Part shown: piece after piece, positions 375 through 61,460 of the stretch
Numbering within the stretch: position 1 is the stretch's first letter
Layout of the letters: every line of letters starts with the position of its first letter
NCBI GenBank assembly: GCA_049515915.1
Contig: JBEKTP010000003.1
Coordinates: 735 to 64,734, forward strand
DNA length: 64,000 nucleotides
Direction: 5' to 3'
Source: Patescibacteria group bacterium
GTDB lineage: Bacteria; Patescibacteriota; UBA1384; UBA12157; JAENIV01
Translations under genes and position numbers: made by a program
The notes under the pieces: model-generated
What the model was told of the DNA's origin: nothing
The model's database searches: none
Seen by the model: the letters and a program-made list of their open reading frames with translations, nothing else

Positions 375-1985
375 TTAATCATACTTGTTTAGAGTAGCTT
401 TAATGAACTCAATAAAAAGTGGATGAGGATCTAAAGGTCTTGATTTGAGTTCGGGGTGGAATTGGGTGGCAAGAAAGAACGGATGATCAACGATTTCAAT
501 TATCTCAACCAATTTCCCGTTTGGTGACGTGCCGGAAATAACTAGACCTTTTTCTTCTAATTTCTTTTTATATTTATTATTGACTTCATAGCGGTGGCGA
601 TGACGCTCGGAAATCGCGGATTTTTTATAAGCTTGGTAAGCTGTTGTTCCCGTTTTAAGTTTGCAAGGATAAGCGCCTAAACGCATCGTGGCGCCGTACT
701 TTGAACCTTCGAGCAATTTCTCCTGTTCAGGCATAATGTAGACGACTGGATAAGGCGTTTTAGGATCGATTTCGGTTGTATTGGCTTTACTCATTTGGCA
801 AGCGTGGCGGGCAAACTCGATGGTGGCCAGTTGCAGGCCGTAGCAAAGTCCGAGGAAAGGAATTTTCTGTTCGCGGGCGTATTTGATGGCCTGAATTTTT
901 CCTTCGACCCCGCGGCTGCCAAAGCCGCCGGGCACGACAACGCCGTCAATATCTTTCAGCATTTTTTCGGGGCCTTCTTTTTCAATTTTTTCGGCATCAA
1001 TCCAATCAATTTGAATTTTGACATTGTTGTAGACCGCGGCCGTTTTTAAAGCTTCAGTCACCGAATAATAAGTGTCTTTCATCCCCATATATTTCCCGAT
1101 TAAGCCGATGCGAACAACTTTATCAGGTAAATTCTCAAGTTTTTTTAAGAATTTGTTCCACGCTTGGCCGTTGTCTTTCTTTCCTTTAAGTTTTAATTTT
1201 TTGGCAGTAATTTTATGAAGATTAAACTTTTCCAAAACGACCGGCACTTTATAAACCGAATCGACTGTTTCCAAAGGGATAACCGCTTCTGAATCGACAC
1301 CGGTAAAGAGGGCAATTTTATTAAGGAGATTAGGATTGACTGGATGGTCGGATCGGCAAATTAAAATATCCGGTTGAATCCCCATCGCTTGAAGGTCATG
1401 GACGCTATTTTGAATTGGTTTCGACTTGAGTTCCTCGGAAGCGCCAAGGTATGGCAGAAACCCGACGTGAACGTATAAAACATTTTCCTTCCCGACATCG
1501 TATTGCATTTGACGAATGGCTTCGACAAAATGCGTGCCTTCGTAGTCGCCGATCGTGCCGCCGATTTCGGTAATTAAAACTTCGCACTGGGATTTTTTGG
1601 CGGCCGAAAATATTCTTTCTTTGACTTCATCAGTCACATGCGGAATCATCTGGATGGTTTTACCGAGGTACTGGCCACCACGCTCTTTTTCCAAAACCGC
1701 TTGATAAATTTGGCCGGACATCACCGAAGAAGTTCGATTGAGACTTTTATTTAAAAATCTTTCGTAATGACCCAAATCTAAATCGGTTTCGGCACCGTCG
1801 TCTAAAACAAAACATTCGCCGTGCTCGTTGGGGTTTAATGTGCCGGCGTCGACATTGAGATACTGATCGAATTTTTGCATCCAAACTTTGAAACCTTGAG
1901 CTTGTAAAATATTGCCGATCGAAGCGGCGGTAATGCCTTTGCCCAAACCCGATAAAACTCCACCCGTGACGAAGATGAATTTCAT
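375..1985 (-). CDS. pyrG: CTP synthase
   Basis: 536-aa ORF. N-terminal MKFIFVTGGVLSGLGKGI P-loop-like synthetase domain and C-terminal GATase domain (GLCYGLQ). Full-length match to the PyrG family. Confidence 0.95.
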   Translation of the reverse strand: MKFIFVTGGVLSGLGKGITAASIGNILQAQGFKVWMQKFDQYLNVDAGTLNPNEHGECFVLDDGAETDLDLGHYERFLNKSLNRTSSVMSGQIYQAVLEKERGGQYLGKTIQMIPHVTDEVKERIFSAAKKSQCEVLITEIGGTIGDYEGTHFVEAIRQMQYDVGKENVLYVHVGFLPYLGASEELKSKPIQNSVHDLQAMGIQPDILICRSDHPVNPNLLNKIALFTGVDSEAVIPLETVDSVYKVPVVLEKFNLHKITAKKLKLKGKKDNGQAWNKFLKKLENLPDKVVRIGLIGKYMGMKDTYYSVTEALKTAAVYNNVKIQIDWIDAEKIEKEGPEKMLKDIDGVVVPGGFGSRGVEGKIQAIKYAREQKIPFLGLCYGLQLATIEFARHACQMSKANTTEIDPKTPYPVVYIMPEQEKLLEGSKYGATMRLGAYPCKLKTGTTAYQAYKKSAISERHRHRYEVNNKYKKKLEEKGLVISGTSPNGKLVEIIEIVDHPFFLATQFHPELKSRPLDPHPLFIEFIKATLNKYD

Positions 1986-2077
1986 TGAGAACTTTTCTAG
2001 CCCTCATTAATTTAGCAACAACTTGCGAAAGTTGTCAAATTGTTAAGAAAAATTATACTATAAAAATAGGAGGATTG

Positions 2078-3478
2078 ATGAATATCAAATTTGGCACTGA
2101 CGGTTGGCGAGGAATTATCGATAAGGACTTCGATGAAGAAAATGTTAAGCTGGCGACGCAGGCGATCGCAAAGTTTTTTATTGATAATGGCAAAAAAAGT
2201 GTTGTTATCGGGTACGACGGCCGCCGCAAGGCGGATATTTTTGCGAACACCGTGGCCGAAGTAATGGCCGGCAATGGTATCAAAGTTTATTTAGTTGATA
2301 AACCCTGTCCTTCGCCAGTGGCTGGTTATGCTGTCATCGATAAGGGTGCGGACGGTGGTATAATGCTGACGGCCTCGCACAATCCGCCGGAGTTTTTGGG
2401 TCTCAAGTATATTACTGAAAAAGTGATGGTCGCACCGACGGAAGTGACCGATCAATTTATTAAGAATTTGGAAGATTTAGAACTGGCTGATGTTAAATTG
2501 GGCGACAAAATTGAAATTTTTGATCCGAAGCCGGCCTATGTGGTTAAAATCAAGAGTTTAGTTGATATCGAGAAAATTAAAAATTTCGAGCTTAAAGTTT
2601 TATTGAATCCGATGAACGGTGCCGGCGTGGGATATTTGGAGGAAATGCTTAAGGGTGGAAAAATTCAGATTGAAACGATTAATAACGAAGTTAAACCGGA
2701 TTTTGGCGGAAAACATCCCGAGCCGATTGTTGAGAAGAATGTCACCGATGCCATCGAAAAAATGAAAAGCGACAATTTTGATGTCTGCCTTTCTTCTGAC
2801 GGCGACGCTGATCGAATTGGTTTAATTGATGAAAATGGCAAAATGATTACCTCACTCGAAGGCTCTTTGCTTTTGGTTTATTATCTGGTCGTGGTTAAAG
2901 GTCAAAAAGGACCGATTGTCGAAACCTTGTCCAACACGGTGATGGGGGAAAATCTATGCAAAAAATATAACCTAGATTTTTATGAAGTCAAAGTCGGTTT
3001 TAAATATGTCGGCGAAAAAATGGCCGAAGTGGGGGCGATCTGGGGTGGGGAAGAATCTGGTGGCTCGGCAATTAAAGATTTTATTCCTTATCGCGACGCT
3101 CAACTGATGAATTTATTGATTTTGGATTTGATGGTAGAAAAACAAAGGCCGATTTCGGAAATTTTAGAAATCGCTAAAAAAGAAGCGGGCGGCGGTTATC
3201 AATTCCGTCGTGAAGATGTCCATTTCGAGTACGATCAATATGAAAAAATTAAAAACACTCAAGCGGCTGAACTGACCAAAAACCCGCCGAAAGAAGTTTT
3301 AGGCCGGAAAGTCGCCCGAACCCGGGACGATGACGGCTTAAAAATATATTTTGAAGACGGTTCCTGGCTCTTGATTCGCTTTTCAGGTACGGAGCCGGTG
3401 TTAAGACTCTATGCGGAAGCCAAAACAATGACTGAGGTTGATAAATTTATCAATTATGCCAAAGAATATTTTGGTTAG
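2078..3478 (+). CDS. phosphoglucomutase/phosphomannomutase family protein
   Basis: GTDGWRG motif and TASHNPPEF active-site serine loop. Start chosen at ATG 2078, preceded by AGGAGG 5 nt upstream. Upstream TTGTCA-16-TATACT promoter at about 2031-2058. Confidence 0.85.
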   Translation: MNIKFGTDGWRGIIDKDFDEENVKLATQAIAKFFIDNGKKSVVIGYDGRRKADIFANTVAEVMAGNGIKVYLVDKPCPSPVAGYAVIDKGADGGIMLTASHNPPEFLGLKYITEKVMVAPTEVTDQFIKNLEDLELADVKLGDKIEIFDPKPAYVVKIKSLVDIEKIKNFELKVLLNPMNGAGVGYLEEMLKGGKIQIETINNEVKPDFGGKHPEPIVEKNVTDAIEKMKSDNFDVCLSSDGDADRIGLIDENGKMITSLEGSLLLVYYLVVVKGQKGPIVETLSNTVMGENLCKKYNLDFYEVKVGFKYVGEKMAEVGAIWGGEESGGSAIKDFIPYRDAQLMNLLILDLMVEKQRPISEILEIAKKEAGGGYQFRREDVHFEYDQYEKIKNTQAAELTKNPPKEVLGRKVARTRDDDGLKIYFEDGSWLLIRFSGTEPVLRLYAEAKTMTEVDKFINYAKEYFG

Positions 3479-3499
3479 TAATTGTTCTCTCTAAAAAAA

Positions 3500-3535
3500 G
3501 AGAGGCGCCGCGCGCTGGGGGAGCGCGGCGCCTCG
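3500..3535. terminator. 12-bp GC hairpin (GAGGCGCCGCGC...GCGCGGCGCCTC)
   Basis: Perfect 12-bp stem. A-run on the plus-strand 5' side, which is a U-run for the minus-strand transcript. Likely terminates the minus-strand small-peptide operon and possibly the phosphoglucomutase-family gene. Confidence 0.5.
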
Positions 3536-3584
3536 TAGCCAAGTTCGAGGCGGACAGCCACTTGGCTACAGCGAGATCGTTTGT

Positions 3585-3791
3585 CTAGGTGGAGACCAAA
3601 CCTCCATCCTTGCTTTGGGATAGGGTCTGGTCGGGATGCGGGCTTTTTCCCGCGTCCATCTCAGCGAGGAGTTCCGCGGTGGTCGTCTTGGACATCTTGG
3701 CGACGAAGGCCATGTCAATTCCTGGTTTCAAACATCGCTCTTCGTAGGACTTGACCTTGGCCTCTTGGGCCGGCGGGAGAGCGTCTCGCAT
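3585..3791 (-). CDS. hypothetical 68-aa protein (GC-rich cassette)
   Basis: ORF with GGGGGTGAGAG upstream of the ATG. Third gene of a minus-strand small-ORF operon. Confidence 0.4.
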   Translation of the reverse strand: MRDALPPAQEAKVKSYEERCLKPGIDMAFVAKMSKTTTAELLAEMDAGKSPHPDQTLSQSKDGGLVST

Positions 3792-3794
3792 CTC

Positions 3795-3914
3795 TCACCC
3801 CCTTTCTTTCCGTGGTGCTCTGGCGCTGATCGCCATAAAGAGGAAAAGGAACATCGGTCCTCCAATGGCAAAGGCTCCAAAAGCCCAACGAATCACCACA
3901 GCGAGTCCGTTCAT
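3795..3914 (-). CDS. 39-aa hydrophobic peptide (MNGLAVVIRWAFGAFAIGGPMFLFLFMAISARAPRKERG)
   Basis: Hand-translated, below the ORF-track cutoff. GGAAAGGAAAGG immediately upstream of the ATG. Single predicted TM helix. Stop lies 3 nt before the start of the 68-aa ORF. Confidence 0.35.
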   Translation of the reverse strand: MNGLAVVIRWAFGAFAIGGPMFLFLFMAISARAPRKERG

Positions 3915-4092
3915 CGGCCTTTCCTTTCCGCTGTTGGCTACATCTCTATCGGGTGTAGTGCGATGAGGCACTTGTTCACATCACCCGGATGATCCGTAAG
4001 AAACAGACAGTCACACAGGCGATGCCAATCACCAGACGATATCCTCTCTCAATGAGAGGATTGGATCTGAACCAAAACTTGCTGAAGATCGC

Positions 4093-4164
4093 TTACAGGA
4101 TCAGGAAAATCCCGCAAAGAGCGCAGAAAAGCGTCAGTCCGACAGAATAGACCGTTGGCCACAT
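4093..4164 (-). CDS. 23-aa hydrophobic peptide (MWPTVYSVGLTLFCALCGIFLIL)
   Basis: Hand-translated. GGAGG 7 nt upstream of the ATG. TTGAAC-16/17-TATAAT promoter at about 4225-4252 (minus strand) in host-like AT-rich DNA directly upstream. Confidence 0.3.
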   Translation of the reverse strand: MWPTVYSVGLTLFCALCGIFLIL

Positions 4165-4275
4165 CGTCACGACCTCCGAAAGTTGAATTGTGAGGTAGCC
4201 CCTCAATTCTATTATGGCTCGCAAGGAATTATAAATACAAGAGATTGGAGTTCAAAAATAGATTCTTATTAATTC

Positions 4276-5244
4276 TTATATTATCAAACCCATTTTTTCT
4301 TTAACATCAGTAATGGTTTTTTGGGCGGCGGGAGCCAGTTTCAGAGCGCCGTCTTTAAGGATTTTCTTGATATCTTCGTCAGAAATTTCTTGGCGCTTCT
4401 TTTGAATCGGCTCGAGTTCTTTAATGATCGCTTCGGCGAGAGCGGGTTTAAACTCCGAATATTTAATCGTGCCGGCTTGGCGCTCTTTCATATATTTTCC
4501 TTCAGCTTCATGGCCGGCAAAAATTCCTATCAGCCCGATCAGGTTTTTGGTTCCTTCGGAAATCTCCTCACCTTGGCCAGTGTCGGTGGTTGCGGCCGCA
4601 ATTTTTTGGCGAATAATATCTGGACTATCAGAAAGCGCGATGTAGGTTCCCGGCGTATTTGATTTACTCATCTTACCTTTACCGTCGAGGCCGATGATTC
4701 TTTTCGTTTCTGTCAATATGGGTTTTGGTTCGATGAAAGTTTGGCCAAATTTGGAATTGAATCGCCGGGCCAAATCGCGGGCGAGCTCGATATGCTGGGT
4801 TTGGTCTTCACCGACAGGTACCCCTTCACCGCCATAAATTAAAATATCCGCCGCCATTAAAATAGGGTAATCGAAAAGACCCATCAATTGTTCGTGTTTT
4901 CCATGCTTTGCAGATTTTTCTTTAAACTGGGTCATCCGATTAAGTTCCCCCATCGTGGTAATTGTATTTAAGAGCCATGCCAATTCGGTGTGTTCGGGGC
5001 GGTCGGATTGCAAAAATAAGATCGATTTGGCTGGATCAATGCCCACGGCCAAAAGGTCTTTGGCGGCATTTAAAATTCGCGCGGGCATTTCTTTCGGATC
5101 GTAGTCAACGGTAATGGCATGGTAATCGACGACCCCAAAAATACATTCATTGTCATCTTGAAGAGCGACCCAGTTTTTCATGGCACCTAAATAATTGCCA
5201 ATATGAAACTCGCCCGAAGGCTGGATGCCGGAAAAAATTTTCAT
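4276..5244 (-). CDS. trpS: tryptophan--tRNA ligase
   Basis: HIGN (HIGH-type) motif in FSGIQPSGEFHIGNYLG, and KMSKS. Start set at MKIFSG (GGAGG upstream), not the longer ORF-track start. Confidence 0.9.
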   Translation of the reverse strand: MKIFSGIQPSGEFHIGNYLGAMKNWVALQDDNECIFGVVDYHAITVDYDPKEMPARILNAAKDLLAVGIDPAKSILFLQSDRPEHTELAWLLNTITTMGELNRMTQFKEKSAKHGKHEQLMGLFDYPILMAADILIYGGEGVPVGEDQTQHIELARDLARRFNSKFGQTFIEPKPILTETKRIIGLDGKGKMSKSNTPGTYIALSDSPDIIRQKIAAATTDTGQGEEISEGTKNLIGLIGIFAGHEAEGKYMKERQAGTIKYSEFKPALAEAIIKELEPIQKKRQEISDEDIKKILKDGALKLAPAAQKTITDVKEKMGLII

Positions 5245-9462: not shown

Positions 9463-10242
9463 TTATCGCTCTGGCCCTTGTAACGTATCGCTCCTGAAGT
9501 GCCTTCTCATCGGTGGAACGAACGGCGGCGAGTAGCTGACCGAGACAAAAACTCTTTTTTGCTCGGCCAACAGCGCCTTGATCGCTTGATCGATCACTTC
9601 CACGTTCTCCGTGAGGTTCTCTATGAGAATCTTGCGGATGGCACGTTCCAGATCCTCGCACATGGAATCAAAGCCTGTTGGAGAGAAATCGTAATCGGTG
9701 GCCTTGATGAAAAACGATGCCTCCGCTCTTCGGTCCATGGAGTCTTTCGCTTCGATTCCACTGATGGTTCTGGCGGTGGAATAGAAGATGTGACCCTTTA
9801 GTCGCCAGATCCAGCTGCCACAGAAAGGCCAGTGGGTCTTCTTACCGATCCAGATGCCGACGATCTCTTTGCCTTTCTGGGCCACCTCGCGGGCTTTGAA
9901 TAATTCATCGAGCTCGTCGATGAACTGTCTCTTGTATCCCAGGTAGGCGATATTCACGCACAGGGCACACACGATCATCGCCACAATCCACATAATCACT
10001 CGCGTTGTAATAATCGGATGGTTGTAGTGGGCGGCGAGGATAGCCGCGGCAAGCACGGCCAGTGAGCCCAAGATAGTCCAAGCGCCGATTGAACGATCGT
10101 ATTTCTTGGACCGCTCGTTGATATGCGGGTACTCACGGTACCACTCGATCACGTTACCCCACCGGAGTGGGAGAGAGCCTGTCGAGCCAAGAGTGACGAT
10201 CGTCAGAACTACCTCAATCACGTCTATCAGCTTTTCCGGCAT
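9463..10242 (-). CDS. hypothetical membrane protein (about 3 TM N-terminal, about 150-aa soluble C-terminal domain), GC-rich cassette
   Basis: Start set at MPEKLIDV with AAAAGGAG upstream. Own TTGACA-17-TATATAAT promoter at about 10317-10348 (minus strand). Confidence 0.6.
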   Translation of the reverse strand: MPEKLIDVIEVVLTIVTLGSTGSLPLRWGNVIEWYREYPHINERSKKYDRSIGAWTILGSLAVLAAAILAAHYNHPIITTRVIMWIVAMIVCALCVNIAYLGYKRQFIDELDELFKAREVAQKGKEIVGIWIGKKTHWPFCGSWIWRLKGHIFYSTARTISGIEAKDSMDRRAEASFFIKATDYDFSPTGFDSMCEDLERAIRKILIENLTENVEVIDQAIKALLAEQKRVFVSVSYSPPFVPPMRRHFRSDTLQGPER

Positions 10243-10316
10243 TTGCGGCTCCTTTTGCCAGCAATCGGTTGGATTGTGGGGCATTGGCCCCACCGATTGC
10301 CGAGGCATTCGATTGT

Positions 10317-10348
10317 ATTATATAAGAGTTCTCAAGTCAATTGTCAAC
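10317..10348 (-). promoter_or_regulatory. sigma70-like promoter (TTGACA-17-TATATAAT) for 9463-10242
   Basis: Read on the minus strand. Preceded by the GGCCCGCCACCCGGCGGGCC hairpin that terminates the upstream gene. Confidence 0.5.
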
Positions 10349-10408
10349 AAAGTTAATAAGATGAAGGCCCGCCGGGTGGCGGGCCGAGAAGTCATGATAG
10401 TCGATGAA

Positions 10409-11083
10409 CTATCGGTGGAGGATCTTCGGCGCGGACATAATCCGCTTGGCTGCTTCGCCCGCGCGGTCGCTGGGTTCACCGAGCTGTTCTTTCACTGCGT
10501 CGTTGTAGAGAGATTCTGTAATCGCGAGCAGAGCATAGTGCGCTTCCGCGAGCGACTCATCGCGCGAAAAGGTATCGTCTGCGCGGATTCTCGGGATGAT
10601 CAACTCAATCTCGCCACGGTTGAAGAAGAAGCCCCATACGGGAGTGATCCCGAAGCCCGCCAGTTCGATACTGGTTGGGTAGAATTCGCCAAGGTGCTTT
10701 TTCATCCCGGGGCACTTGGCGAAAGCTTCTTTACCCAGCTCGTGATAGATCGTCGCCATCGCCCAGACGGCTGCCAGGTCAGTGAACGTCCGTGTGTGAA
10801 ACTGGGCGCTCATTGTTCTTTCGCCCTCAACTTTGACAGCGCGGAGTTGACCTTGGCTATGTTCTCCGCGGATCAGCGCCCCGTGGTGATAGTAGTCAAA
10901 CAACAGGATTGTTCGGGGGCTTAAGGGGATACTCTTACCGCGCGGAGGGGTTCCATCGAAACGGGCCAGCTGGAGGCCGAATTCCGCTGATTCGAGTTGA
11001 CCGATATCGATGTTGTCATCACTGGGCGAGAAGTCGGGCAATCGAAACCGGTTAATCTCGACGACAAGAAGCGTATGTCTCAT
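10409..11083 (-). CDS. hypothetical 224-aa protein (GC-rich cassette)
   Basis: AAAGAGGAAG RBS. TTGACA-16-TATATT promoter (minus strand) at about 11140-11175. No recognisable domain. Confidence 0.5.
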   Translation of the reverse strand: MRHTLLVVEINRFRLPDFSPSDDNIDIGQLESAEFGLQLARFDGTPPRGKSIPLSPRTILLFDYYHHGALIRGEHSQGQLRAVKVEGERTMSAQFHTRTFTDLAAVWAMATIYHELGKEAFAKCPGMKKHLGEFYPTSIELAGFGITPVWGFFFNRGEIELIIPRIRADDTFSRDESLAEAHYALLAITESLYNDAVKEQLGEPSDRAGEAAKRIMSAPKILHR

Positions 11084-11202
11084 CTTCTTCCTCTTTCGGG
11101 CGAGGTGCCCACGGTGTATTCCGGTCAGAGCCGGTAGCTAAAATATATTTTAAAATGAGAATTTGTCAACAAAAAACAGATTTTTTCTCTTAGATAAGAG
11201 AA

Positions 11203-11269
11203 GACGGCCAGCTGCGTTGCAGCTGGCCGTCTGTAGTCCGTGCAAAACATCACACGGACGGGGACCTCA
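11203..11269. repeat. double-hairpin element, family A copy 2
   Basis: GACGGCCAGCTGC-gtt-GCAGCTGGCCGTC. Relative to copy 1 it has a G-C to A-T compensatory pair in the stem. Second hairpin GTCCGTG-loop10-CACGGAC, then GGGGACCTCA, whose last 3 nt are the stop codon of 11267-12100. Confidence 0.7.
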
Positions 11270-12100
11270 TTTGAAATGCAAACCCAACTCTGCATCCGTA
11301 ACCGGCGTGGCCCCATCAGCGGCCGCAGACTCCTCGCTAGTTTCGCCTTTCGGCGGGATGTTGAAGATCTCCGCGCCGAGCTTGATACTCTTGACTCTGG
11401 CGATGGCTCGAGGATCAAATCGAAAGCTGTTGACCAGGTTGCAGACCCTCTCTTCGGTGGGATTTTCGAGCTCGAGGAGAGCCTCGATGAACGCCTTGTA
11501 GGTTTGGTCGACGATTACATCGTAGCTTTCTGGCGGTATCGCCCAGAAATTGTCAAAGCTGGAGTCGGGGATGAAGCTCGTCACAGTAGAGGCAACGGCC
11601 CCGCCTTTCTCCGGTGCCAGAGCCAGCGGCTTCAGCGGAAGGGCTTTCTCGCGTTTGGTGCGCACGGCGCCGTAGAAGAACATATTGCCATCGATGTTGG
11701 CCGACTTGCCCGGTTCGAGGTAGATCCAGGTCTTTCCGAGGATCAACCAGCCTGGGCCATAAGCCCTTCCCCAATGTTCCTCGGGCTCGGGTGCTGTGAA
11801 CCAGCCGAACAGCCGACCCAAAAGGGGGAGGACCGTTGCCGTCAACGCGAAGACGATGGTGAGAGAGCGTGATTTCTCATGATTGGTGGGTAGTGTGAAT
11901 GTTGCTAACAAGCATACGACAGCAAGAGCTAGGACGATCACAGAGACACTAATGGCGGTGTTTGTGATCACACACAGTGCCATGTCGTTGTGGCCCGGCA
12001 CTTTTCCCCTTAGGGTGGTTCTCCCATGGATTTCGCGCATCAGATAGATGCTGACGACAGCGAGAACCAAGACAGTCAGACAAAAGGCGACTTCGGACAT
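11267..12100 (-). CDS. hypothetical membrane protein (4 TM N-terminal, soluble C-terminal domain), GC-rich cassette
   Basis: Start set at MSEVAFCL with AAAGGAGAG upstream. Stop codon embedded in the end of repeat A2. Confidence 0.6.
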   Translation of the reverse strand: MSEVAFCLTVLVLAVVSIYLMREIHGRTTLRGKVPGHNDMALCVITNTAISVSVIVLALAVVCLLATFTLPTNHEKSRSLTIVFALTATVLPLLGRLFGWFTAPEPEEHWGRAYGPGWLILGKTWIYLEPGKSANIDGNMFFYGAVRTKREKALPLKPLALAPEKGGAVASTVTSFIPDSSFDNFWAIPPESYDVIVDQTYKAFIEALLELENPTEERVCNLVNSFRFDPRAIARVKSIKLGAEIFNIPPKGETSEESAAADGATPVTDAELGLHFK

Positions 12101-12240
12101 CGCGGCTCTCCTTTGCTTGCCGGGGTTGTATGGGGCGGTATGGCCCGCCGGCAAGACAAGGAATGGGGCGAAACGCTCCGACGGAGCTTGAGCCGATTAT
12201 ATCTCGAGAACGTTTAAATGTAAATAGTATTTAATATCGT

Positions 12241-12489
12241 TTATACCAAAAGATGGAAGGCGGAAGGATTGAAGACGTAGTAAGTTCGATAATCGGTTTC
12301 TTTGGCTTTCAAAAAATGATGCTTGGCGAAATTGCGGCAATAATATTGCGTCGCGCCAATGGACCAGCCTAATTCTTTGGCCACTTCCGCTTGGTAAAAC
12401 TCTTTTTTTTCTTCGCAAAATCGCAAAAACTGGGCTTTCTTTTTGCCAAAGAGAAATTCAAATTGGCCGGTGTCTTTAATCTTGATCAT
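12241..12489 (-). CDS. small putative winged-helix DNA-binding protein
   Basis: 82 aa, AT-rich host-like codon use. Helix-turn-helix-like segment (QAEVAKELGWSIGATQYY). Weak call. Confidence 0.35.
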   Translation of the reverse strand: MIKIKDTGQFEFLFGKKKAQFLRFCEEKKEFYQAEVAKELGWSIGATQYYCRNFAKHHFLKAKETDYRTYYVFNPSAFHLLV

Positions 12490-12575
12490 TTTGCTCCTTG
12501 TAAGTTCGATTAAAAATTAATCTATGTCGTTAGATTTATAATATCGTGAGATCAAAAAAATAGCAAATCAATATT

Positions 12576-12902
12576 CTAAGCAAAATCGGGCAGGTGAATT
12601 TTATGCTTGTCGATTACATGGCCTTCATTGGCAAGCAATTTTTCTTTGGCCTTGATTCCCTTGGCATATTCGCCGACAAAATTATCGGAACGAATGACGC
12701 GATGGCAGGGAACCGGTTCGAATTCTTTCATTGGTAGCTGCCAATTTTTAGCACGATAATTACGATTCAAAATTGAACCGACGGCACGGTAGGCCTGAGG
12801 GCTTCCGGCTTTTTTAGCGACTTGAGAATAAGTCATGACTTTACCTTTAGGAATCTGCGCTACAATATTGAGAACTTTACGCGAAAAATCTTTTTTAAGC
12901 AT
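12576..12902 (-). CDS. ogt: methylated-DNA--protein-cysteine methyltransferase DNA-binding/active-site domain protein (MGMT/Ogt-like)
   Basis: PCHRVI active-site motif with downstream helix-turn-wing. The 108 aa correspond to the C-terminal catalytic domain only. Confidence 0.7.
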   Translation of the reverse strand: MLKKDFSRKVLNIVAQIPKGKVMTYSQVAKKAGSPQAYRAVGSILNRNYRAKNWQLPMKEFEPVPCHRVIRSDNFVGEYAKGIKAKEKLLANEGHVIDKHKIHLPDFA

Positions 12903-12960
12903 GGCACTTTCAATATAGGCTTCCGAAATAAGTTGTCAATTAAACGAAATCGACTCCGCC

Positions 12961-13398
12961 TCAGAAAGGCGGAGTCGTCGATAGACCCAGTCGGTTACTG
13001 GGGAAGAAATAAGTACACCGATTCAGCCGGAACGGCTGAGGGTGATCGATGCGGGTGTACCGGGGAACGCCGCTGAAATCGAGCGCCCCGATTTCCCCCG
13101 GACCTTTGTGGATGCCACCGCCCCAGTTGAGATCAGTGCTGGTAAACCAGCACCAGAAAGCTCCGATGGTGGCCATGATGGTTCCGGTAATCCAGCCGTC
13201 CGGCGTGCCTTGTCCCAGTATGGGAGAGATCAGAGCCACTAAGAAGCTGACCGAACAGCCTACCACGGCACAGATTTCATCCCGCCGGCTTGGTCGCGGC
13301 CTGATGGGAAGCATCAAGTAGCAGTAGGCAAGCAGCCACCGCCAGTACAAAGCGATGGCGGCCGCGATGATCGCAACCAGCCAGAGTAACCAGAGCAT
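12961..13398 (-). CDS. hypothetical polytopic membrane protein (GC-rich cassette)
   Basis: Start at MLWLLWLV with GAAAGGAGAGG upstream. Perfect TTGACT-17-TATAAT promoter (minus strand) at 13455-13483. GC hairpin CGACTCCGCC...GGCGGAGTCG overlaps the stop. Confidence 0.55.
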   Translation of the reverse strand: MLWLLWLVAIIAAAIALYWRWLLAYCYLMLPIRPRPSRRDEICAVVGCSVSFLVALISPILGQGTPDGWITGTIMATIGAFWCWFTSTDLNWGGGIHKGPGEIGALDFSGVPRYTRIDHPQPFRLNRCTYFFPSNRLGLSTTPPF

Positions 13399-13454
13399 CA
13401 GCGCCTCTCCTTTCTTGGTTCGACCTTTCACTTCAAGATCACGGCATAATCAAA

Positions 13455-18838: not shown

Positions 18839-19207
18839 ATGGTGGTTAACTGGATTTTGCCGTTAGCGGCCATATTGGCGCTGGCCAGCACTAAACGGCG
18901 GGCGCCGAAGACGCAACCGCTACCCCCCGATTACCACGTGCATCCGGACGAGCCCGAGGACTTTACCATCCTCACGATGGTGATGCGAACGGATGCTGAC
19001 TGGACAAGAGACGAGATCTTCCAAGTCTGCCGGTTGATCGCGCCCAAAAGCGTCAGCCGTCATCCGGACCATCCTCGCGTTCTGTTCTTGCCGGGACGCG
19101 GCTATCAGCGCGAGCTGATTACGGCTGTGCTCGGCCACGAGCACTTCGATCTGGACGAAGTGGCCAAGGGAGATCCGGCTCTGCCCTTCCTGGCCATTTT
19201 TGTCTAG
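18839..19207 (+). CDS. hypothetical secreted/membrane-anchored 122-aa protein (GC-rich cassette)
   Basis: GAAAGGAAGGG RBS. N-terminal hydrophobic signal-like segment. TTGATT-17-TATAAA promoter in AT-rich DNA at about 18770-18805. GGCGGCGGTCTCATCGCCGCC hairpin terminator at 19235-19256. Confidence 0.5.
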   Translation: MVVNWILPLAAILALASTKRRAPKTQPLPPDYHVHPDEPEDFTILTMVMRTDADWTRDEIFQVCRLIAPKSVSRHPDHPRVLFLPGRGYQRELITAVLGHEHFDLDEVAKGDPALPFLAIFV

Positions 19208-19330
19208 CTGGCTTCGCCAGTGTTGACATCAAGGCGGCGGTCTCATCGCCGCCTTTCTCTTATATTTATAAAAGGAAGGGCGGCAGGACTTCTGTCCTGC
19301 CGCCGTTATAATCTGGGCGAGAAACGCTGG

Positions 19331-19828
19331 TTAGGCAGTGGCCATCTCTGGGATCATGGCATCCACGGCTCGCATCACCGCCGCGGCGGTCTGATCGCTG
19401 ACTCTGAGTGGCGCTCGGAGCTCGGGCGCGGCGCGGAAGATGTCTCTGAGAGTAAGGACGAGCTCGCCGTAGTATGGCCTTTCTCGGAGGTCGCAGTCGA
19501 CGCTGAAAGTGGCGACGGGCTCTTTCCAGCAAAGTGTGAACAACCGTTCGTACTTTGGATGGCCGAGCCCGAGCTTGGCCAGCTCGCTGAAGATGACGAA
19601 CTGGTGTGGCTCGACGAGCAAGACGAGTCGCAGGTTGGTCACCTCGAGCTTCTTGTACAGCCGGAAGCCGCCGGTATTATACAGTGGCGCAAACTCCATT
19701 TTCTCCGTCGGCGAACCCGTGATGGCGAACACGACAGAAGTCGTCAGCTTCTCGAGGTCGCTCGCGTCAACCTCTTTCCCCAGAATTGGAATCAAGGCAC
19801 GGCAAACTGATTTGATCCCAACTTTCAT
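19331..19828 (-). CDS. hypothetical 165-aa protein (GC-rich cassette)
   Basis: Start MKVGIKSV with AGGAGAGAG upstream. Convergent with 18839-19207. GGGCGGCAGGAC...GTCCTGCCGCC hairpin terminator. Confidence 0.5.
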   Translation of the reverse strand: MKVGIKSVCRALIPILGKEVDASDLEKLTTSVVFAITGSPTEKMEFAPLYNTGGFRLYKKLEVTNLRLVLLVEPHQFVIFSELAKLGLGHPKYERLFTLCWKEPVATFSVDCDLRERPYYGELVLTLRDIFRAAPELRAPLRVSDQTAAAVMRAVDAMIPEMATA

Positions 19829-20152
19829 CTGTCTCTCTCCTCGCCTTAAAATGTTCGGCACAGTCAAATCTAGCTTTATATTGATTAGTCAACAACCACT
19901 TGTAAAGACCCCTTTCAAAAAATAGGGAACCAATAAGTATTGAGCAACGACGGCGGTTTGGAGCACACACTGACAAGGGCGGATCGAACGCGCTGAAAGC
20001 GCTTTCGGCCGCCAAGAAAGTTTCGGCGAAAGCCGAGCAGGACTCGGGTGGGTGATGTATTGCCCGCCTTTTTTGTTAGAAAGTCGCCGGGGAATTGACA
20101 GAAGGTAAATCATATTATATAGTGCAACTAATCTGAACTGGTGAGGTGATTC

Positions 20153-20671
20153 ATGAAATACCGTATCAAAATCGGAGCCGTAGAACGTGAAGTCGTCATG
20201 GATGGTAAGGGTTGGGCAGTCAGCGCGGTGATCCTCGCCATCATCGAGCAGCATCTCCATGGAGTACCGGCGGCGGCCATCAGCCTGGAGATCGGGGATA
20301 AGACTCTCGATCCGAACGGAGGGATCGATGTCCAGCTCGATAAGCTTAGGGCTACCAAAGTGATTGAGAACTTGCCGGTAATCACCGTGCAGATCGATCA
20401 AGAAATGGTGGCCGAGGAGCAACGGAGAATCACCGAAGCCAGCCGACCCGAAGCGCTCTCGACGGTGCATCAGGGGAAGGTTCGGTTCGTCCGGGTCAAC
20501 GACAAAACCCGGACCGACGTGGCCAGCATCCGGCGGCTGGCTCTCTCATCACGGGCGAGCCGGCGTTGTGGCTTTCTCTGGCTCTCGCGGCGCTACTGCG
20601 TCGCCTTCGGTGATAAACCGGTGCAGTGGCTGAGAGAGATGGAAATCGCCAGCGAGCTCTTGCGGAAGTGA
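20153..20671 (+). CDS. hypothetical 172-aa protein (GC-rich cassette)
   Basis: GGTGAGGTGA RBS. TTGACA-17-TATTAT promoter at about 20094-20125. Terminator hairpin 20700-20738. Confidence 0.5.
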   Translation: MKYRIKIGAVEREVVMDGKGWAVSAVILAIIEQHLHGVPAAAISLEIGDKTLDPNGGIDVQLDKLRATKVIENLPVITVQIDQEMVAEEQRRITEASRPEALSTVHQGKVRFVRVNDKTRTDVASIRRLALSSRASRRCGFLWLSRRYCVAFGDKPVQWLREMEIASELLRK

Positions 20672-20699
20672 GAGCTTCTCGGCCGCGGGGCCGGAAAAA

Positions 20700-20738
20700 C
20701 AGGCAGGGCGCGTATACGCGCCCTGCCTTCTCTGTTTT
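20700..20738 (+). terminator. intrinsic terminator
   Basis: CAGGCAGGGCGCGTATACGCGCCCTGCCT hairpin followed by TCTCTGTTTT. Confidence 0.5.
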
Positions 20739-20816
20739 AAAGAGTTCCAGAGAAAATTGTTATTTTGGTGATATAATAAAATAAAGTTATAAATAAATTA
20801 TTCTCAAGGAGGGTTC

Positions 20817-27224: not shown

Positions 27225-27328
27225 GCGTTTGGAAAGAAAGCTCTAAACTTTGCCGTCGGCAAGTTTGGGGTACGCACCTTAAGTTTTGAATGTGGATTCT
27301 ATTTTACCGCCCAAAGGGCGAGGAGGAG

Positions 27329-28162
27329 ATGACGTTGGCAGGCTGTAGAATTGATAAGCGCGTCGTGATTCTGGCTCTTGATGGTGTCGAAGGCAAGAGA
27401 GCAATGTTGGATACTATTACTCGTGTCATGGACGGCCCGATCGGTCCGTATGTGGCATATGTCAAACTCAATGATGGACTGCACGATAAGGACGGCGGTC
27501 CAAACATTGTCCGCGCGATCCTCGTGGAGCATCCGAAACTGGATGTCTTCGGCGACATCAAGGGTGCCGATGTCTGGGGTACAATCCAGAACATCTGCAA
27601 GCGCTACGATGTCGCACGGATGCTCATGACTATCTCGATCCACGTGGACCACGGCGTCTTCGCGAAGCTGGCAACCACCTATCCGGCGCTAAAGATTGCG
27701 GCGATGGTGGTGCCCACCGACATTGCGAAGAAGGACTTCCTGCGTCGGTACGACATGGAGCCAGCCGAGGCCATGGAAACGTGGTATGGCGGGCTGACTG
27801 ATCTCTACCGCGAAGAACTTGACATCCCGGACGGCTATCCTTCGGAGCTGGTTATTGCCAGCAAAGACATGCTCCCGACTGTGCAGGAGAACTTCCCAGG
27901 AGTCCTCTCGATCACGCCAGGCGTGCGCGACGTCTGGATGGTTGATGCCGATCATCAAAAGCGCACTACAGGTGTCCAGAAAGCACTGGAGCTTGGGGCG
28001 CGGTACGTTGTCATGGGCGCCCAGCTTCTCAAGGGTGCAACTGGCGTAGACGCTAAAGAGAGCCAGGCGCGGACCGTGGTGGAGATCGAGCGCTTTTTCA
28101 ATCCGCCGGACGAGGGCAACGATGCGCTGGCGGGGATACACTACCGCGAGCCGCAGATCTGA
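27329..28162 (+). CDS. orotidine-5'-phosphate decarboxylase-fold protein (PyrF-like; OMPDC/KGPDC/HPS superfamily)
   Basis: GC-rich. VILALDG...YVKLNDG...FGDIKGADV (D-x-K-x-x-D catalytic motif) ... MTISIHV ... ITPGVR ... GARYVVMG. Motif order matches OMP decarboxylase. GGAGGAG RBS. Confidence 0.6.
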   Translation: MTLAGCRIDKRVVILALDGVEGKRAMLDTITRVMDGPIGPYVAYVKLNDGLHDKDGGPNIVRAILVEHPKLDVFGDIKGADVWGTIQNICKRYDVARMLMTISIHVDHGVFAKLATTYPALKIAAMVVPTDIAKKDFLRRYDMEPAEAMETWYGGLTDLYREELDIPDGYPSELVIASKDMLPTVQENFPGVLSITPGVRDVWMVDADHQKRTTGVQKALELGARYVVMGAQLLKGATGVDAKESQARTVVEIERFFNPPDEGNDALAGIHYREPQI

Positions 28163-28264
28163 ACGTCATATCAAGCCGTTAATGACCGACCGAGATCGGT
28201 CAACGGCGCCGCACACCATTACGAAGGGAAGGAGAGGCCAATTTCTGAACAGCGAATCAGGGTT

Positions 28265-28543
28265 TTGAAAACGCCGGTCGGAACGGCGCCAAAATGGGTG
28301 CGCGAGGCTTGGACGGGACTGGAACTTCCCGCCGCTCCTGGATATTGGGGAGTTGTCGGCGTGGCCGCGGCGGCTGATGATACCGAAGGCTATGCCGTCC
28401 ATGCCCACACCGCTTTCTCATCTCTCGAGAGAGATCCCGAAAAAGCGAAAGCGTACGAGTGGTATCTGCAGCATCAGTCCGACCTGTTCCAATCGCATGT
28501 TTACCTGCGATTCGGCAAGCGGTTTTGCGAGTTGGTTACGTAG
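28265..28543 (+). CDS. hypothetical 92-aa protein between the PyrF-like and PRTase genes
   Basis: ORF with apparent TTG start. No clear RBS. Uncertain. Confidence 0.25.
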   Translation: MKTPVGTAPKWVREAWTGLELPAAPGYWGVVGVAAAADDTEGYAVHAHTAFSSLERDPEKAKAYEWYLQHQSDLFQSHVYLRFGKRFCELVT

Positions 28544-28578
28544 TCCATCACCGCTTGGAAAGAGGAGGAGGTGAAGAG

Positions 28579-29340
28579 ATGGCGAATAGTACGTTCAGAA
28601 GCATCCTCGATGTCAGGTCCGCAGAAGGGTTGTGGGCACTGAAGCCCTCGCATTTCGTCGATCGCGAGATTACTATCGGGGAGTTCACGCACATGCTCAA
28701 GCTACGAGACGCCTTCTGGCAGTACGAAGGCGAGCCGCGGCCGGAACAACCGCACGCCCTGACCCGGGACGGCATGTGCACCGACGGGTTCGTTGACACC
28801 CTGAGGCTTCTCTGCTTGTCCAATATCTGCGAAATTCTCGGCGGACAGATGCTGGCGCAGGTGAGGAAAGTAACTGTGTTGAAACCTTTCCAGTGGACCA
28901 TCAGTGCCGCCAACGCCGGAATCGATCTCGGTCACGAAGTTGGTCGGCAGGCGCGAACCAACATCGCCTTCACCGAGAAGGACAAGGATGGCAACCCGAC
29001 GGTCTGGAAGAGATTTACTGTTGCCGAGGGCGAGACAGTCCTGATTGTCAACGAGCTCATGACCACGGCCCATGGCAGTACTTATATGGCCAAGGCAGCT
29101 GTCCGGGACCAGAACAAGGTTCAGCCGGTTCGGTTCATGCCGGTAACGGCCGTGCTCGTCAACCGGTCAGCCGACACGGAGACCCTCGAAGACGGAACGC
29201 CGGTGGTGGCACGTTTCCGCTACCACATGCACACCTATCAGCCAGGCCCAGCCACCTGCAAGTACTGTGCGGCCGGTTCGCCCTCCATTAAGCCGAAGGT
29301 CGAAGGCAACTGGGAGAAGTACTTCGCTTCGGCGATCTGA
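28579..29340 (+). CDS. type I phosphoribosyltransferase (orotate-PRTase-like) with Cys-containing C-terminal extension
   Basis: PRPP-binding motif VLIVNELMTTAHGST (hydrophobic x4, acidic, TTG/A-x-T). N-terminal GEFTHMLKL resembles the OPRTase GEFTLKSG hood. GAGGAGGAGG RBS. Confidence 0.6.
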   Translation: MANSTFRSILDVRSAEGLWALKPSHFVDREITIGEFTHMLKLRDAFWQYEGEPRPEQPHALTRDGMCTDGFVDTLRLLCLSNICEILGGQMLAQVRKVTVLKPFQWTISAANAGIDLGHEVGRQARTNIAFTEKDKDGNPTVWKRFTVAEGETVLIVNELMTTAHGSTYMAKAAVRDQNKVQPVRFMPVTAVLVNRSADTETLEDGTPVVARFRYHMHTYQPGPATCKYCAAGSPSIKPKVEGNWEKYFASAI

Positions 29341-58950: not shown

Positions 58951-59118
58951 TTTTCACCTCAAAATTTATTTGTCTTAGATAATCTTACCAAATTTGACGA
59001 AATTCTCAAGCGATTTTTGACCAAAGTGATTTTTTGGAGGGGGACGCCTTGATTATTCGTTAGTTTTATGGTAAAGTATGGTCAGAAATCGCCGTCATCA
59101 ACTCTGAGCGAGGTGAAG

Positions 59119-59541
59119 ATGATGTCTGATTCAAAGAAGACGTGGATTGGGGCGTTGATTTTTGTGACACTGATGGTATGCTGGTATTTCGTGACACGGC
59201 CCTCTGCGACAAGCCAGCCGCCGGGCGCAAGTGCAGTCGCGGCTATTCGGGCTATCGGTCTAGGCGGGCCGTCTTTCGTCCACACATGGACAGGGACGAA
59301 CGAGTTCGGGATGAGCGTGATTCTTATCATCAACGACGGCGGCATGTGTTCGTTCGGCGGTGATCCGCTCAAGTGGAGAGTCGAGGGCAGTACCCTCGTC
59401 ATCTACAAGGACGGGTCCAACTACACTCTCAGAGGGACTCTCTCGAGCGACGGGCACGGGTTGGAGCTGGCCATTCCGTGGAACAGCCCAATTACCGGAA
59501 AGCCGGAGGTACGAACCTACAACTTCGTCCGGCAAGGGTGA
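59119..59541 (+). CDS. hypothetical membrane-anchored 140-aa protein (GC-rich cassette)
   Basis: GAGGTGAAG RBS. N-terminal TM, beta-rich extracytoplasmic domain. Confidence 0.45.
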   Translation: MMSDSKKTWIGALIFVTLMVCWYFVTRPSATSQPPGASAVAAIRAIGLGGPSFVHTWTGTNEFGMSVILIINDGGMCSFGGDPLKWRVEGSTLVIYKDGSNYTLRGTLSSDGHGLELAIPWNSPITGKPEVRTYNFVRQG

Positions 59542-59627
59542 GAAGAATGCGGCGACCAAGGCGTTGTTGTCACCTTCCGCCGCGACGAAAATATCTTGAT
59601 CGGTACTGGAGGGGCGATGCAAGCCGG

Positions 59628-59687
59628 ACTCGGCGGGCTTTAGCCCGCCAGACGAGCTCTGGGGATTTCCCGGAGCTCGTTTTCGTT
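59628..59687 (+). repeat. double-hairpin terminator-like element, family B copy 1
   Basis: GGCGGGC-ttta-GCCCGCC, then ACGAGCTC..GGGGATTTCCC..GAGCTCGT, then TTTTCGTT. Near-identical copy at 61036-61094. Confidence 0.65.
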
Positions 59688-59770
59688 CCAAAGAGAAAAA
59701 TTTGACAGTTAAAATAGTCGTTGTGGTATAGTATTAATACATCAATTTAATGAACTTGACAGGAGGAAAA

Positions 59771-60998: not shown

Positions 60999-61035
60999 CG
61001 AACACTTCGTCGTGACGTGACACGTTGCGGATCGA

Positions 61036-61457: not shown

Positions 61458-61460
61458 TCA

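Follow-up and report, generated by a model that had tools for sequence, protein, structure and literature searches.

A probable lineage-restricted small-protein operon, partly eroded, between trpS and a phosphoglucomutase gene in a Patescibacteria genome

In a Berkelbacteria-like Patescibacteria genome, a unit of small ORFs lies on the minus strand in the gap that separates trpS from a convergent phosphoglucomutase (PGM) gene. We think it probable that this unit is a lineage-restricted, separately promoted small-protein operon, lying in a recombination hot spot and partly eroded in the copy studied here. Comparison with a sister genome, L091, shows what the erosion comprises: ORF1 is cut by a CAA to TAA change to a 23-aa stump with a single transmembrane (TM) segment, a further gene, ORF3a, is absent, and in ORF3 only the first 20 residues are well kept.

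The original prediction for this part of the window (the whole 64-kb stretch of DNA that was analysed) was a transcription unit encoding two tiny hydrophobic peptides and a 68-aa protein. A separate small-ORF transcription unit is indeed there, with a promoter, three Shine-Dalgarno-led ORFs, and terminal hairpins (Table 1). As a description of the unit's design, however, the trio falls, because ORF1 is truncated and the sister genome has an additional two-TM gene.

Table 1. Features of the small-ORF unit, in window positions
Feature	Position	Strand	Remarks
Sigma-70-type promoter, TTGAAC-16-TATAAT	4228..4255	-	10/12 match; identical in L091
5' leader	4165..4221	-	GGAGG Shine-Dalgarno 4177-4173, 8 nt 5' of ATG 4164
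ORF1 stump, 23 aa (MWPTVYSVGLTLFCALCGIFLIL), one TM segment	4093..4164	-	stop TAA 4095-4093
Former ORF1 codons 25-62 and stop TGA (3978-3976)	3976..4092	-	frame still open; translation AIFSKFWFRSNPLIERGYRLVIGIACVTVCFLRIIRVM, then stop
Hairpin ATCCTCTC-ATTGA-GAGAGGAT	4061-4041	-	inside former ORF1 frame
ORF1-ORF2 spacer, small hairpin and GGAAAGGAAAGG Shine-Dalgarno (3929-3918)	3915..3975	-	Shine-Dalgarno block identical in L091
ORF2, 39 aa, single TM and basic tail (MNGLAVVIRWAFGAFAIGGPMFLFLFMAISARAPRKERG)	3795..3914	-	L091 homologue 33 aa
Junction lacking about 335 nt of L091 (6423-6757, ORF3a)	3815..3816	-	alignment with L091
ORF3, 68 aa, soluble	3585..3791	-	preceded by AAAGGGGGTGA Shine-Dalgarno
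3' hairpin 1 (GTAGCCAAG...CTTGGCTAC)	3535..3569	-	one compensatory A-U to G-C change vs L091
3' hairpin 2, 12-bp GC stem (3534-3502), C-rich loop, TCTC, T7	3493..3534	-	sequence reading

Results

The Locus and Its Promoter

Genes called up to about 6 kb to either side comprise pyrG, PGM, trpS, two genes of nucleotidyltransferase fold, groES, and groEL. The view of the locus as a GC-rich island is right locally (55%-62% GC, against 45% in the window) but the island is not unique, since about 30 such segments occur in the window. More generally, base composition in this genome falls into two classes, with core genes at 40%-45% GC and orphan, often membrane, genes at 55%-60%; this pattern may merit a look across the whole genome. 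ARAGORN called neither a tmRNA nor a tRNA in the island, and the modules have no paralogues within the 64 kb. Two competing plus-strand ORFs were considered and rejected: one of 118 aa is not conserved, and one of 53 aa (3989-4150) has no Shine-Dalgarno and is an expected shadow, because second codon positions are T-rich.

The predicted promoter is present, and the region has four promoter-like sites where shuffled sequence would lead one to expect 1.0. Over the first 50 aligned bases, promoter included, L091 differs at two positions (4%), as against 13%-16% in the 5' UTR and the ORF1-ORF2 spacer. Judging from the position of the -10 element, transcription would start near 4221. Because no terminator-like site is seen between the trpS stop (4276) and ORF1, read-through from trpS into the unit is also possible. 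In the leader, the GGAGG and its spacing are kept in L091; a hairpin there is poorly kept, with one-sided changes, none of them compensatory.

The Reading Frames Are Conserved in a Sister Genome

L091 is a close relative: its groEL, groES, orf295, and nucleotidyltransferase gene are 96% identical in nucleotide sequence (dS 0.13-0.20). At the same locus it has a homologue of the unit, with 87% identity over the first 449 nt, 89% at the start of ORF3, and 88.5% in the terminal hairpins. The island has diverged as far as its flanks (dS of about 0.2), and horizontal transfer from one genome to the other was rejected on this ground. The L091 unit is fuller, comprising ORF1 (62 aa, two TM segments), ORF2 (33 aa, one TM segment), ORF3a (about 100 aa), and ORF3b (65 aa, soluble). 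ORF3a, which has two TM segments and a Pro-rich tail, lies upstream of ORF3b; it is also found, 69% identical, in the related genome L093 (as P0123).

The peptide frames, on whose conservation the original prediction hung, are kept in L091, each with its start codon and Shine-Dalgarno, and show dN/dS below 1 throughout: 0.30 for ORF1, 0.23 for ORF2, 0.41 for ORF3a (L091 versus L093), and 0.17-0.36 for the N terminus of ORF3b, values that average both lineages and are not proof of current selection on the window copy. Across these comparisons with L091 and L093 (omega 0.17-0.41), indels are in frame and the Shine-Dalgarno and ATG are identical, the one exception being the ORF1 frame with its TAA; TM segments are retained in ORF1, ORF2, and ORF3a. 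The modules occur in only three genomes, which limits the tests to one or two pairwise comparisons, and substitutions are few (16 in ORF1).

ORF1 Reads as the Stump of a Longer Gene

The 23-aa ORF had been taken for a peptide in its own right. The ORF and its GGAGG ribosome-binding site are real, but comparison of the sequences shows a nonsense-truncated form of a 62-aa, two-TM gene: the codon that is CAA in L091, where ORF1 runs on to its full length, is TAA here, and this TAA was found in all seven same-species contigs that were fetched. Peat or groundwater samples that yielded the species include JGI 3300038451, 3300038417, and 3300017941 and ENA ERZ27250124. Codons 1-23 differ from L091 by four synonymous and no non-synonymous changes, whereas former codons 25-62 differ by four synonymous and eight non-synonymous (omega 0.61); the difference between the two parts has a Fisher p of 0.077. 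The hairpin predicted to follow the 23-aa ORF also exists, but its stem is spelled slightly differently and it sits inside the former frame. Both the stump and ORF2 pass a Kyte-Doolittle 19-residue window above 1.6. Longer starts offered by the ORF tool, a GTG (58 aa) and a TTG (43 aa), are not conserved in L091, and the ATG starts of the original prediction are therefore better.

ORF2 and ORF3

The single-TM peptide encoded by ORF2 was found as predicted, with its ribosome-binding site, although its size of 39 aa is not fixed, as the shorter L091 homologue shows. The two differ by in-frame indels and retain hydrophobicity despite 24% nucleotide divergence (pS 0.60, pN 0.23); divergence of the ORF1-ORF2 spacer, which we took as a roughly neutral level, is 16%. 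An AIGGP motif with a double glycine is conserved, located inside the hydrophobic segment. ORF2 and ORF3 share a frame across one TGA. We rejected recoding or read-through at this UGA because TGA serves as a stop codon in the genome (TAA 20, TAG 4, TGA 3) and because in L091 these two ORFs do not share a frame.

The 68-aa soluble ORF is likewise present; the sister's two-TM ORF3a is missing here. This difference of about 335 nt may be either a deletion here or an insertion in L091. The GC content of ORF3 by codon position (0.58/0.45/0.71) resembles that of the GC-rich genes of the window. The protein combines a conserved head with a fast-diverging tail: only the first 20 residues are well conserved, with omega 0.36 against L091 and a counterpart that can still be recognised in L093. 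From residue 22 to residue 55, it matches the C terminus of a 180-aa L093 protein at 50% identity (omega 0.22). A chimeric origin was considered and rejected, since traces of the same motif emerged in the L091 tail when it was aligned more closely. A single-sequence AF2 model has three short helices and a disordered tail (pLDDT 69), and in one MAG variant the tail is frameshifted.

The locus could be a relic, the dying remnant of a fuller cassette, perhaps transcribed but with inert peptides, the coding signal being contributed by the sister lineage and by its own history before decay. The ORF1 nonsense codon and the seemingly relaxed constraint beyond it would fit such a history, as would the absence of about 335 nt with ORF3a, an ORF3 tail that is divergent, predicted to be disordered, and frameshifted in a variant, and the fast turnover of this locus in relatives. 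Against it, the promoter has survived intact, as have the Shine-Dalgarno/ATG pairs of all three ORFs, and these elements are better conserved than the spacers; apart from the ORF1 TAA, there is no further stop or frameshift in the three frames; the sequence is identical across the seven same-species contigs; and the 23 codons that ORF1 retains have changed only synonymously. We give complete decay a minor, though not negligible, chance, and continue to favour an operon that is partly eroded, of which the present copy may be only partly functional.

3' Hairpins and RNA Structure

The unit ends, as predicted, at a 12-bp hairpin whose stem is followed by TCTC and seven T. This second 3' hairpin is likely to be an intrinsic terminator, facing the convergent PGM gene. 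A consensus terminator scan did not list it, because the T-run starts 4 nt past the stem and falls outside the scan's rule; the call therefore comes from reading the sequence. The stem is kept in L091, and the equivalent stems of two L093 units covary (three of eight pairs).

The mRNA is more structured than shuffles, with z = -5.7 over the full unit and z = -4.5 once the terminator is removed, and hairpins in the transcript body contain two compensatory pairs. Some RNA-level role for this unusually structured body is conceivable. A stronger version would make the whole island a structured non-coding RNA, or the 3' double hairpin a processed, 6C-like small RNA, with the ORFs incidental. Besides the folding scores and the body pairs, the compensatory change in hairpin 1 and the covarying terminator stems speak for this, as does the best Rfam match in the region, 6C (RF01066), which spans hairpins 1 and 2 at a sub-threshold 41.3 bits (gathering score 47). 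The two hairpins have C-rich loops (..UGUCCGCCUCGA.. and UCCCCCA), the second kept in L091 with one extra C. However, the match drops to 31.8 bits in L091 and is absent in L093, and 6C RNA is an actinobacterial family, whereas the host belongs to another phylum. At gathering threshold, Rfam yielded two tRNAs only in the whole window; a permissive scan of the island added only the sub-threshold 6C, ncS54, and snoRNA-like noise. A GC-rich tandem hairpin with a T-run also looks like a terminator, and the frames show a third-position bias, indels that stay in frame, dN/dS below 1, and hydrophobicity that is kept, all of which point to coding. We judge the non-coding RNA reading very unlikely.

The same folding counts in favour of a type I toxin-antitoxin locus, a class raised by the original prediction, in which ORF2 or the ORF1 stump would be a membrane toxin whose translation is restrained by the structure of the mRNA and by an antisense RNA. 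These hydrophobic peptides have 23-39 aa, and each has a good Shine-Dalgarno; ORF2 combines a TM segment with a basic tail. Yet we found no convincing antisense promoter: the plus strand offers only 9/12 promoter-like matches (3438-3467 and 4188-4215), neither placed to overlap a peptide start and neither with a matching terminator, in a scan by sequence that cannot rule out an unconventional promoter. In addition, the unit has several ORFs, the would-be 23-aa toxin is a truncated 62-aa gene, there are no paralogues in the window, and neither PADLOC nor Pfam gives a match. The class does not fit well, and we regard it as distinctly unlikely.

Searches for Relatives

True relatives of the unit appear, from sequence searches, to be confined to the two related genomes. 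Pfam, PHROGs, and PADLOC matched neither the window ORFs nor the L091/L093 modules, and a PDB sequence search with the modules was also negative. Among 5.8 billion proteins, the 68-aa ORF retrieved only itself, and a 178-aa ORF of L091 only itself and P0123; in a cluster look-up, every family was a singleton. The only phmmer match among 1.84 billion representatives was spurious, to FN3 repeats of a eukaryotic receptor phosphatase. Scans of metagenome contigs with ORF3a and with a concatenated ORF1/2/3 alignment gave no confirmed relative, but these are weak nulls because the ORF1/2/3 scan also missed the window's own species. Foldseek with the low-confidence AlphaFold models returned only E-values above 0.5; three-helix DNA-binding folds were enriched in its list and were not counted as evidence.

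The original prediction had also named bacteriocin or RiPP precursors, to which a prophage lysis cassette with ORF1 and ORF3a as holin-like proteins can be added. The conserved double glycine of ORF2 and the pattern of a conserved N terminus and variable C terminus in the ORF3 family (65-68 aa, hydrophilic) could suit a precursor peptide, and small two-TM proteins resemble class II holins in architecture. But the called neighbours within about 6 kb on each side include no modification enzyme, transporter (C39-peptidase or other), peptidase, immunity gene, or lysin; this neighbourhood already refutes the reading, if weakly. The GG of ORF2 lies within a hydrophobic segment rather than at the end of an amphipathic leader. 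For a lysis cassette, ORF1 lacks the charged C-terminal tail typical of holins, there was no PHROG match, blastn against 50,697 phage records found nothing, and DNA scans of viral contigs with two conserved island motifs of 30-35 nt were negative. Cassettes of either kind are extremely improbable here.

A Recombination Hot Spot between trpS and PGM

The trpS-PGM site is a recombination hot spot, holding differing GC-rich orphan cassettes among relatives. The order groESL-trpS-...-PGM-pyrG is kept, but the orphan ORFs in the gap vary between relatives and are mostly GC-rich; replacement has also affected trpS (dS 2.2), and L093 retains a duplicated trpS 3' end as a scar. In six other relatives (L086-L090 and L092), a conserved low-GC ORF of 61-68 aa with two TM segments directly follows trpS, starting 18 nt past it. 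Its position, strand, size, and architecture are those of ancestral ORF1, but it differs in composition, has no promoter of its own, and shows no detectable homology (hhalign probability 0.5%).

One could go further and see in the trpS-PGM gap of the Berkelbacteria-like clade a cassette exchange site, for which the two flanking genes provide anchors in their conserved 3' ends and at which GC-rich orphan small-membrane-protein genes are swapped, fused, truncated, and perhaps born. ORF1, ORF2, ORF3a, and ORF3b would then form an undescribed membrane-effector-plus-partner module specific to these episymbionts, with GC-richness arising from recombination-linked GC bias rather than a foreign donor, because no donor homologues occur among 5.8 billion proteins. 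This whole picture is speculative and, as we see it, unlikely; if true, the module might serve, for example, in phage exclusion or in symbiont-host surface interaction.

Discussion

The products of the favoured small-protein operon do not, with low confidence, look like housekeeping proteins. They would be accessory peptides that insert into the membrane, together with a small, soluble, helical partner, and perhaps a membrane-acting effector with a modulating or neutralising partner, as in toxin/immunity or phage-exclusion modules. Both suggestions are tentative, and the effector-plus-partner guess has no homology support from Pfam, PHROGs, PADLOC, PDB, or Foldseek.

As a single locus, the unit carries little weight: it is a further example of orphan small membrane proteins encoded together in a genome of the candidate phyla radiation, and the copy is partly broken. 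It does document the replacement of a core aminoacyl-tRNA synthetase gene and of adjacent accessory cassettes between close relatives. It also illustrates that what looks like a gene for a tiny peptide, ribosome-binding site included, may be the remnant of a longer one, which in the case of ORF1 only the sister genome revealed.

Among known systems, the type I toxin peptides (Hok, Ldr, TisB, Fst, Ibs) are similarly tiny, hydrophobic, single-TM products with their own Shine-Dalgarno and a strongly folded mRNA, and ORF2 has their shape of a TM segment with a basic tail. The island differs in that no antisense RNA gene was found, in its multi-ORF layout, in the origin of one peptide from a 62-aa protein, and in having neither sequence similarity to them nor multiple copies. 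The two-TM hairpins of ancestral ORF1 and of ORF3a are close in size to GhoT, class II holins, and pinholins (S21). ORF3a shares their charged cytoplasmic tail, whereas ORF1 lacks one; neither a partner RNase nor an endolysin accompanies them, PHROGs, Pfam, and PADLOC give no match, and they sit among core genes of the chromosome rather than in a prophage. At its 3' end, the unit is like 6C RNA in its two adjacent GC-rich hairpins with C-rich loops, and unlike it in scoring below threshold in both genomes, in its phylum, and in preceding a T-run that ends an mRNA as a terminator does. Finally, the small membrane regulators KdpF, CydX, AcrZ, and MgrB are, like the island's peptides, 20-60 aa long with one TM segment and encoded by short ORFs that annotation often misses. 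Those genes adjoin the operon of the complex they serve, whereas the island's neighbours, trpS and PGM, are unrelated to it, and the island genes are confined to three genomes and turn over fast.

A conserved small-ORF operon between trpS and PGM

A minus-strand unit of 55-62% GC, against 45% window-wide, lies between trpS and a convergent phosphoglucomutase-family gene (PGM). Sequence reading and a promoter scan recovered every element of the original prediction: a promoter, hairpins and ORFs of 23, 39 and 68 aa (ORF1, ORF2 and ORF3; see table). The term GC-rich island is accurate as to composition but does not set the unit apart, since about 30 other window segments are equally GC-rich. GC by codon position in ORF3 (0.58/0.45/0.71) is like that of the window's GC-rich genes. 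The last hairpin was recognized as a terminator by sequence reading and missed by a consensus terminator scan because its T-run begins 4 bases past the stem. The island occurs without any difference in seven same-species contigs (JGI, ENA and Logan collections), so its sequence, including the TAA of ORF1, is not an assembly error.

Features of the island and its neighborhood (window coordinates unless a locus is named)
Feature	Position	Strand or relation
trpS	4276-5244	flanks island
PGM-family gene	1985-3478	convergent to island
Promoter TTGAAC-16-TATAAT	4255-4228	minus
GGAGG	8 bases ahead of ATG 4164 (ORF1)	minus
ORF1, 23 aa, hydrophobic	ATG 4164 to TAA 4093	minus
Hairpin, 8 bp	4061-4041	minus
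GGAAAGGAAAGG, then ORF2, 39 aa	ORF 3914-3795	minus
AAAGGGGGTGA, then ORF3, 68 aa	ORF 3791-3585	minus
Two GC-rich hairpins, then TCTC + T7	3569-3535 and 3534-3502	minus
Low-GC two-TM ORF after trpS	L086 4010-4216, L087 5990-6196, L089 5994-6200, L090 5993-6199, L092 5978-6181, L088 5979-6164	

TrpS homologues were taken from a 5.8-billion-protein search and their contigs fetched for comparison of the locus. These relatives are Patescibacteria, many carrying the Berkelbacteria label. One of them, L091, holds a true homologue of the island: its first 449 nt match at 87%, a 72-nt stretch where ORF3 begins matches at 89%, and the final 96 nt match at 88.5%. Its groEL, groES, a 295-aa gene and a nucleotidyltransferase gene (96% identity, dS 0.13-0.20) mark it as a sister genome. 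The promoter hexamers are identical in the two, and the first 50 aligned bases contain two differences (4%), fewer than in the untranslated parts.

Within ORF1, codons 1-23 show 4 synonymous and no non-synonymous differences. In L091, residue 23 is followed by CAA and the ORF goes on to encode a 62-aa protein that has two TM segments; the window frame also stays open past its TAA, down to the TGA (3978-3976) that ends the L091 gene. The 23-aa ORF, first proposed as a peptide gene in itself, is therefore a nonsense-truncated longer gene, and the 8-bp hairpin said to follow it lies within the former coding frame. Codons 25-62 show 4 synonymous and 8 non-synonymous differences (omega 0.61), a contrast with the codons before the TAA that is suggestive only (Fisher p = 0.077). 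Reading-frame conservation in L091 thus holds for the starts, for the Shine-Dalgarno sites (all three Shine-Dalgarno/ATG pairs are kept) and in omega values below 1, but ORF1 is cut in the window. A plus-strand 53-aa ORF (3989-4150) has an omega equal to that of ORF1 because their third positions coincide; it lacks a Shine-Dalgarno site, an open frame is to be expected opposite codons whose second base is T, and it was discounted as a gene.

ORF2 is 33 aa in L091, with in-frame indels and hydrophobicity kept despite 24% nucleotide divergence (pS 0.60, pN 0.23, omega 0.23). Because synonymous divergence is raised too, positive selection is a less likely explanation than allele replacement. About 335 nt of L091 are missing from the window (junction 3816|3815). 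They encode ORF3a, whose product has two TM segments and a proline-rich tail; in L091 it is fused in frame to the ORF3 homologue to give 178 aa, with the internal GGAGG-ATG retained. The 178-aa ORF led to a third related genome (L093/L094), which has two tandem GC-rich units, each with its own promoter and a similar terminal double hairpin. There, in L093, ORF3a and the ORF3 homologue are separate genes of 102 and 65 aa, and ORF3a has an omega of 0.41 between L091 and L093. L091 conserves residues 1-20 of ORF3 (MRDALPPAQEAKVKSYEERC; omega 0.36), which can still be recognized in L093, the remainder diverging fast. Residues 22-55 share 50% identity (omega 0.22) with the C-terminal end of an L093 protein of 180 aa where the DNA is no longer alignable, a pattern that points to conservation at the protein level.

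ORF2 and ORF3 share one frame in the window, split by TGA GAG ATG (3795-3797). Because the frames differ in L091 and the genome stops at TGA (standard stop codons; TAA 20, TAG 4 and TGA 3 in 27 core genes), the shared frame is a side effect of the 335-nt length difference, and recoding that would join the two ORFs was rejected. In a MAG-catalogue variant of the ORF3 protein, P0125 (74 aa), the C-terminus is frameshifted (…SQARMEVWSPPRQTISL; window 3585-3615), reflecting either real population variation in a disordered tail or sequencing error.

These comparisons give good support to the conclusion that the island is a genuine operon, conserved and coding, whose first gene is truncated. The window copy is best read as partly eroded. 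The strongest rival would make it a pure relic, a non-functional remnant, as the nonsense codon in ORF1, the missing ORF3a gene and the frameshift variant of the ORF3 tail would suggest, but its expression signals are intact and conserved.

A structured transcript

An Rfam scan of the island returned no family at threshold. In a permissive scan, the region's best match was that of the two terminal hairpins (3498-3570, minus strand) to 6C RNA, an actinobacterial family with C-rich loops, at 41.3 bits, below the gathering score of 47. The equivalent element scores 31.8 in L091, where it also weakly matches sX13 and ncS54, and the equivalent L093 hairpins give no 6C score. We read the element as a probable tandem-hairpin terminator. 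Hairpin 1 at the 3' end carries one compensatory A-U to G-C change between the window and L091, and 3 of 8 pairs covary between the terminator stem and its L093 copies. Shuffled sequence folds less well than the sense strand (z = -5.7 whole, -4.5 without the terminal hairpins; opposite strand -2.9; 20 shuffles each) and, with no Rfam family at threshold, the transcript is therefore structured and outside any described RNA family. Both the coding signatures and Rfam scores under threshold contradict a reading as functional non-coding RNA, although the unit may yield a 3'-derived small RNA.

A putative recombination hot spot

Island divergence from L091 (ORF1 dS 0.20, spacers 13-16%) equals flanking dS, implying vertical inheritance with no exchange between the two genomes. 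dS is 0.34 for pyrG and 0.50 for PGM, which is mosaic too. For trpS (5001-5960 in L091), 74% identity and a dS of 2.2 mean that a divergent allele replaced the original in one of the two lineages. Next to pyrG in the same-species contig L001 (11124-12319), just past the window's left end, are genes for an AbiEii-family toxin and an IS200/IS605 Y1 transposase; AbiEii is at the corresponding place also in L090, L091 and L093.

The nearest species representative (L006, TrpS 70%) keeps the order groESL-trpS-...-PGM-pyrG, with three unrelated ORFs filling the gap. In six other relatives a conserved low-GC two-TM ORF (67-68 aa; 61 aa in L088), with loop motif STQSFNKKTHKYC, begins 18 nt past trpS. 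The window lacks it, and homology to ORF1 was not detected. Differing GC-rich orphan ORFs follow it in most of the six, L089 being the exception. At the corresponding position L088 (6184-6600) has an analogous unit unrelated in sequence to the island. A TTGACG-16-TACAAT promoter (10/12) leads into about 380 nt of 58% GC, where an uncalled ORF of some 70 codons has a GGAGG site; two strong hairpins come next, of which the second is a 12-bp terminator. In L093, where trpS ends at 2385, a second copy of its 3' end (EEVKEKMGLMI*, about 2950-2983) follows an inserted low-GC gene of 176 aa and looks like a recombination scar, with the trpS 3' end as the anchor for cassette exchange. Because the trpS allele was replaced, the trpS 3' end is duplicated in L093 and the GC-rich cassettes differ per relative, we propose that trpS and PGM anchor a recombination hot spot.

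Further blocks of ORFs with 55-62% GC (GC3 0.59-0.72) lie at 9463-13431, 18839-20750, 27290-29340 and 59068-63158, in a genome whose core genes have 40-45% GC. The ORFs sampled from them are mostly orphans with TM segments, with no PHROG match and one sub-threshold Pfam match, to OMP-decarboxylase. L091 does not share the block to the right of groEL.

Possible function

No island module matched Pfam, PHROGs, PADLOC or PDB sequences, and every cluster of the modules is a singleton. Searching 1.84 billion representatives with ORF3 (phmmer) returned only itself and one spurious repeat match. Single-sequence AlphaFold models give a two-helix TM hairpin for ORF3a and, at low confidence, three short helices with a disordered tail for ORF3; Foldseek found no match below E = 0.5. 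The window holds no paralogues of the island ORFs.

The type I toxin suggested originally fits poorly, as a toxin-antitoxin locus of that type would have an antisense gene, of which none was found here, and the several ORFs in one unit are a misfit. Nor does the neighborhood support the suggested bacteriocin or RiPP precursor, or a holin: the surrounding genes are core genes, and nearby there is neither a modification enzyme or transporter nor a lysin or phage gene. We infer instead that this may be an accessory operon whose small membrane-inserted proteins and small soluble partner would form an effector-plus-modulator pair.

Of more interest than the island is its context, the proposed trpS-PGM hot spot, together with the two-class base composition. 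The island proteins themselves, small orphan membrane proteins from a candidate-phyla-radiation lineage, form a family that is new and tiny, and of a known kind.
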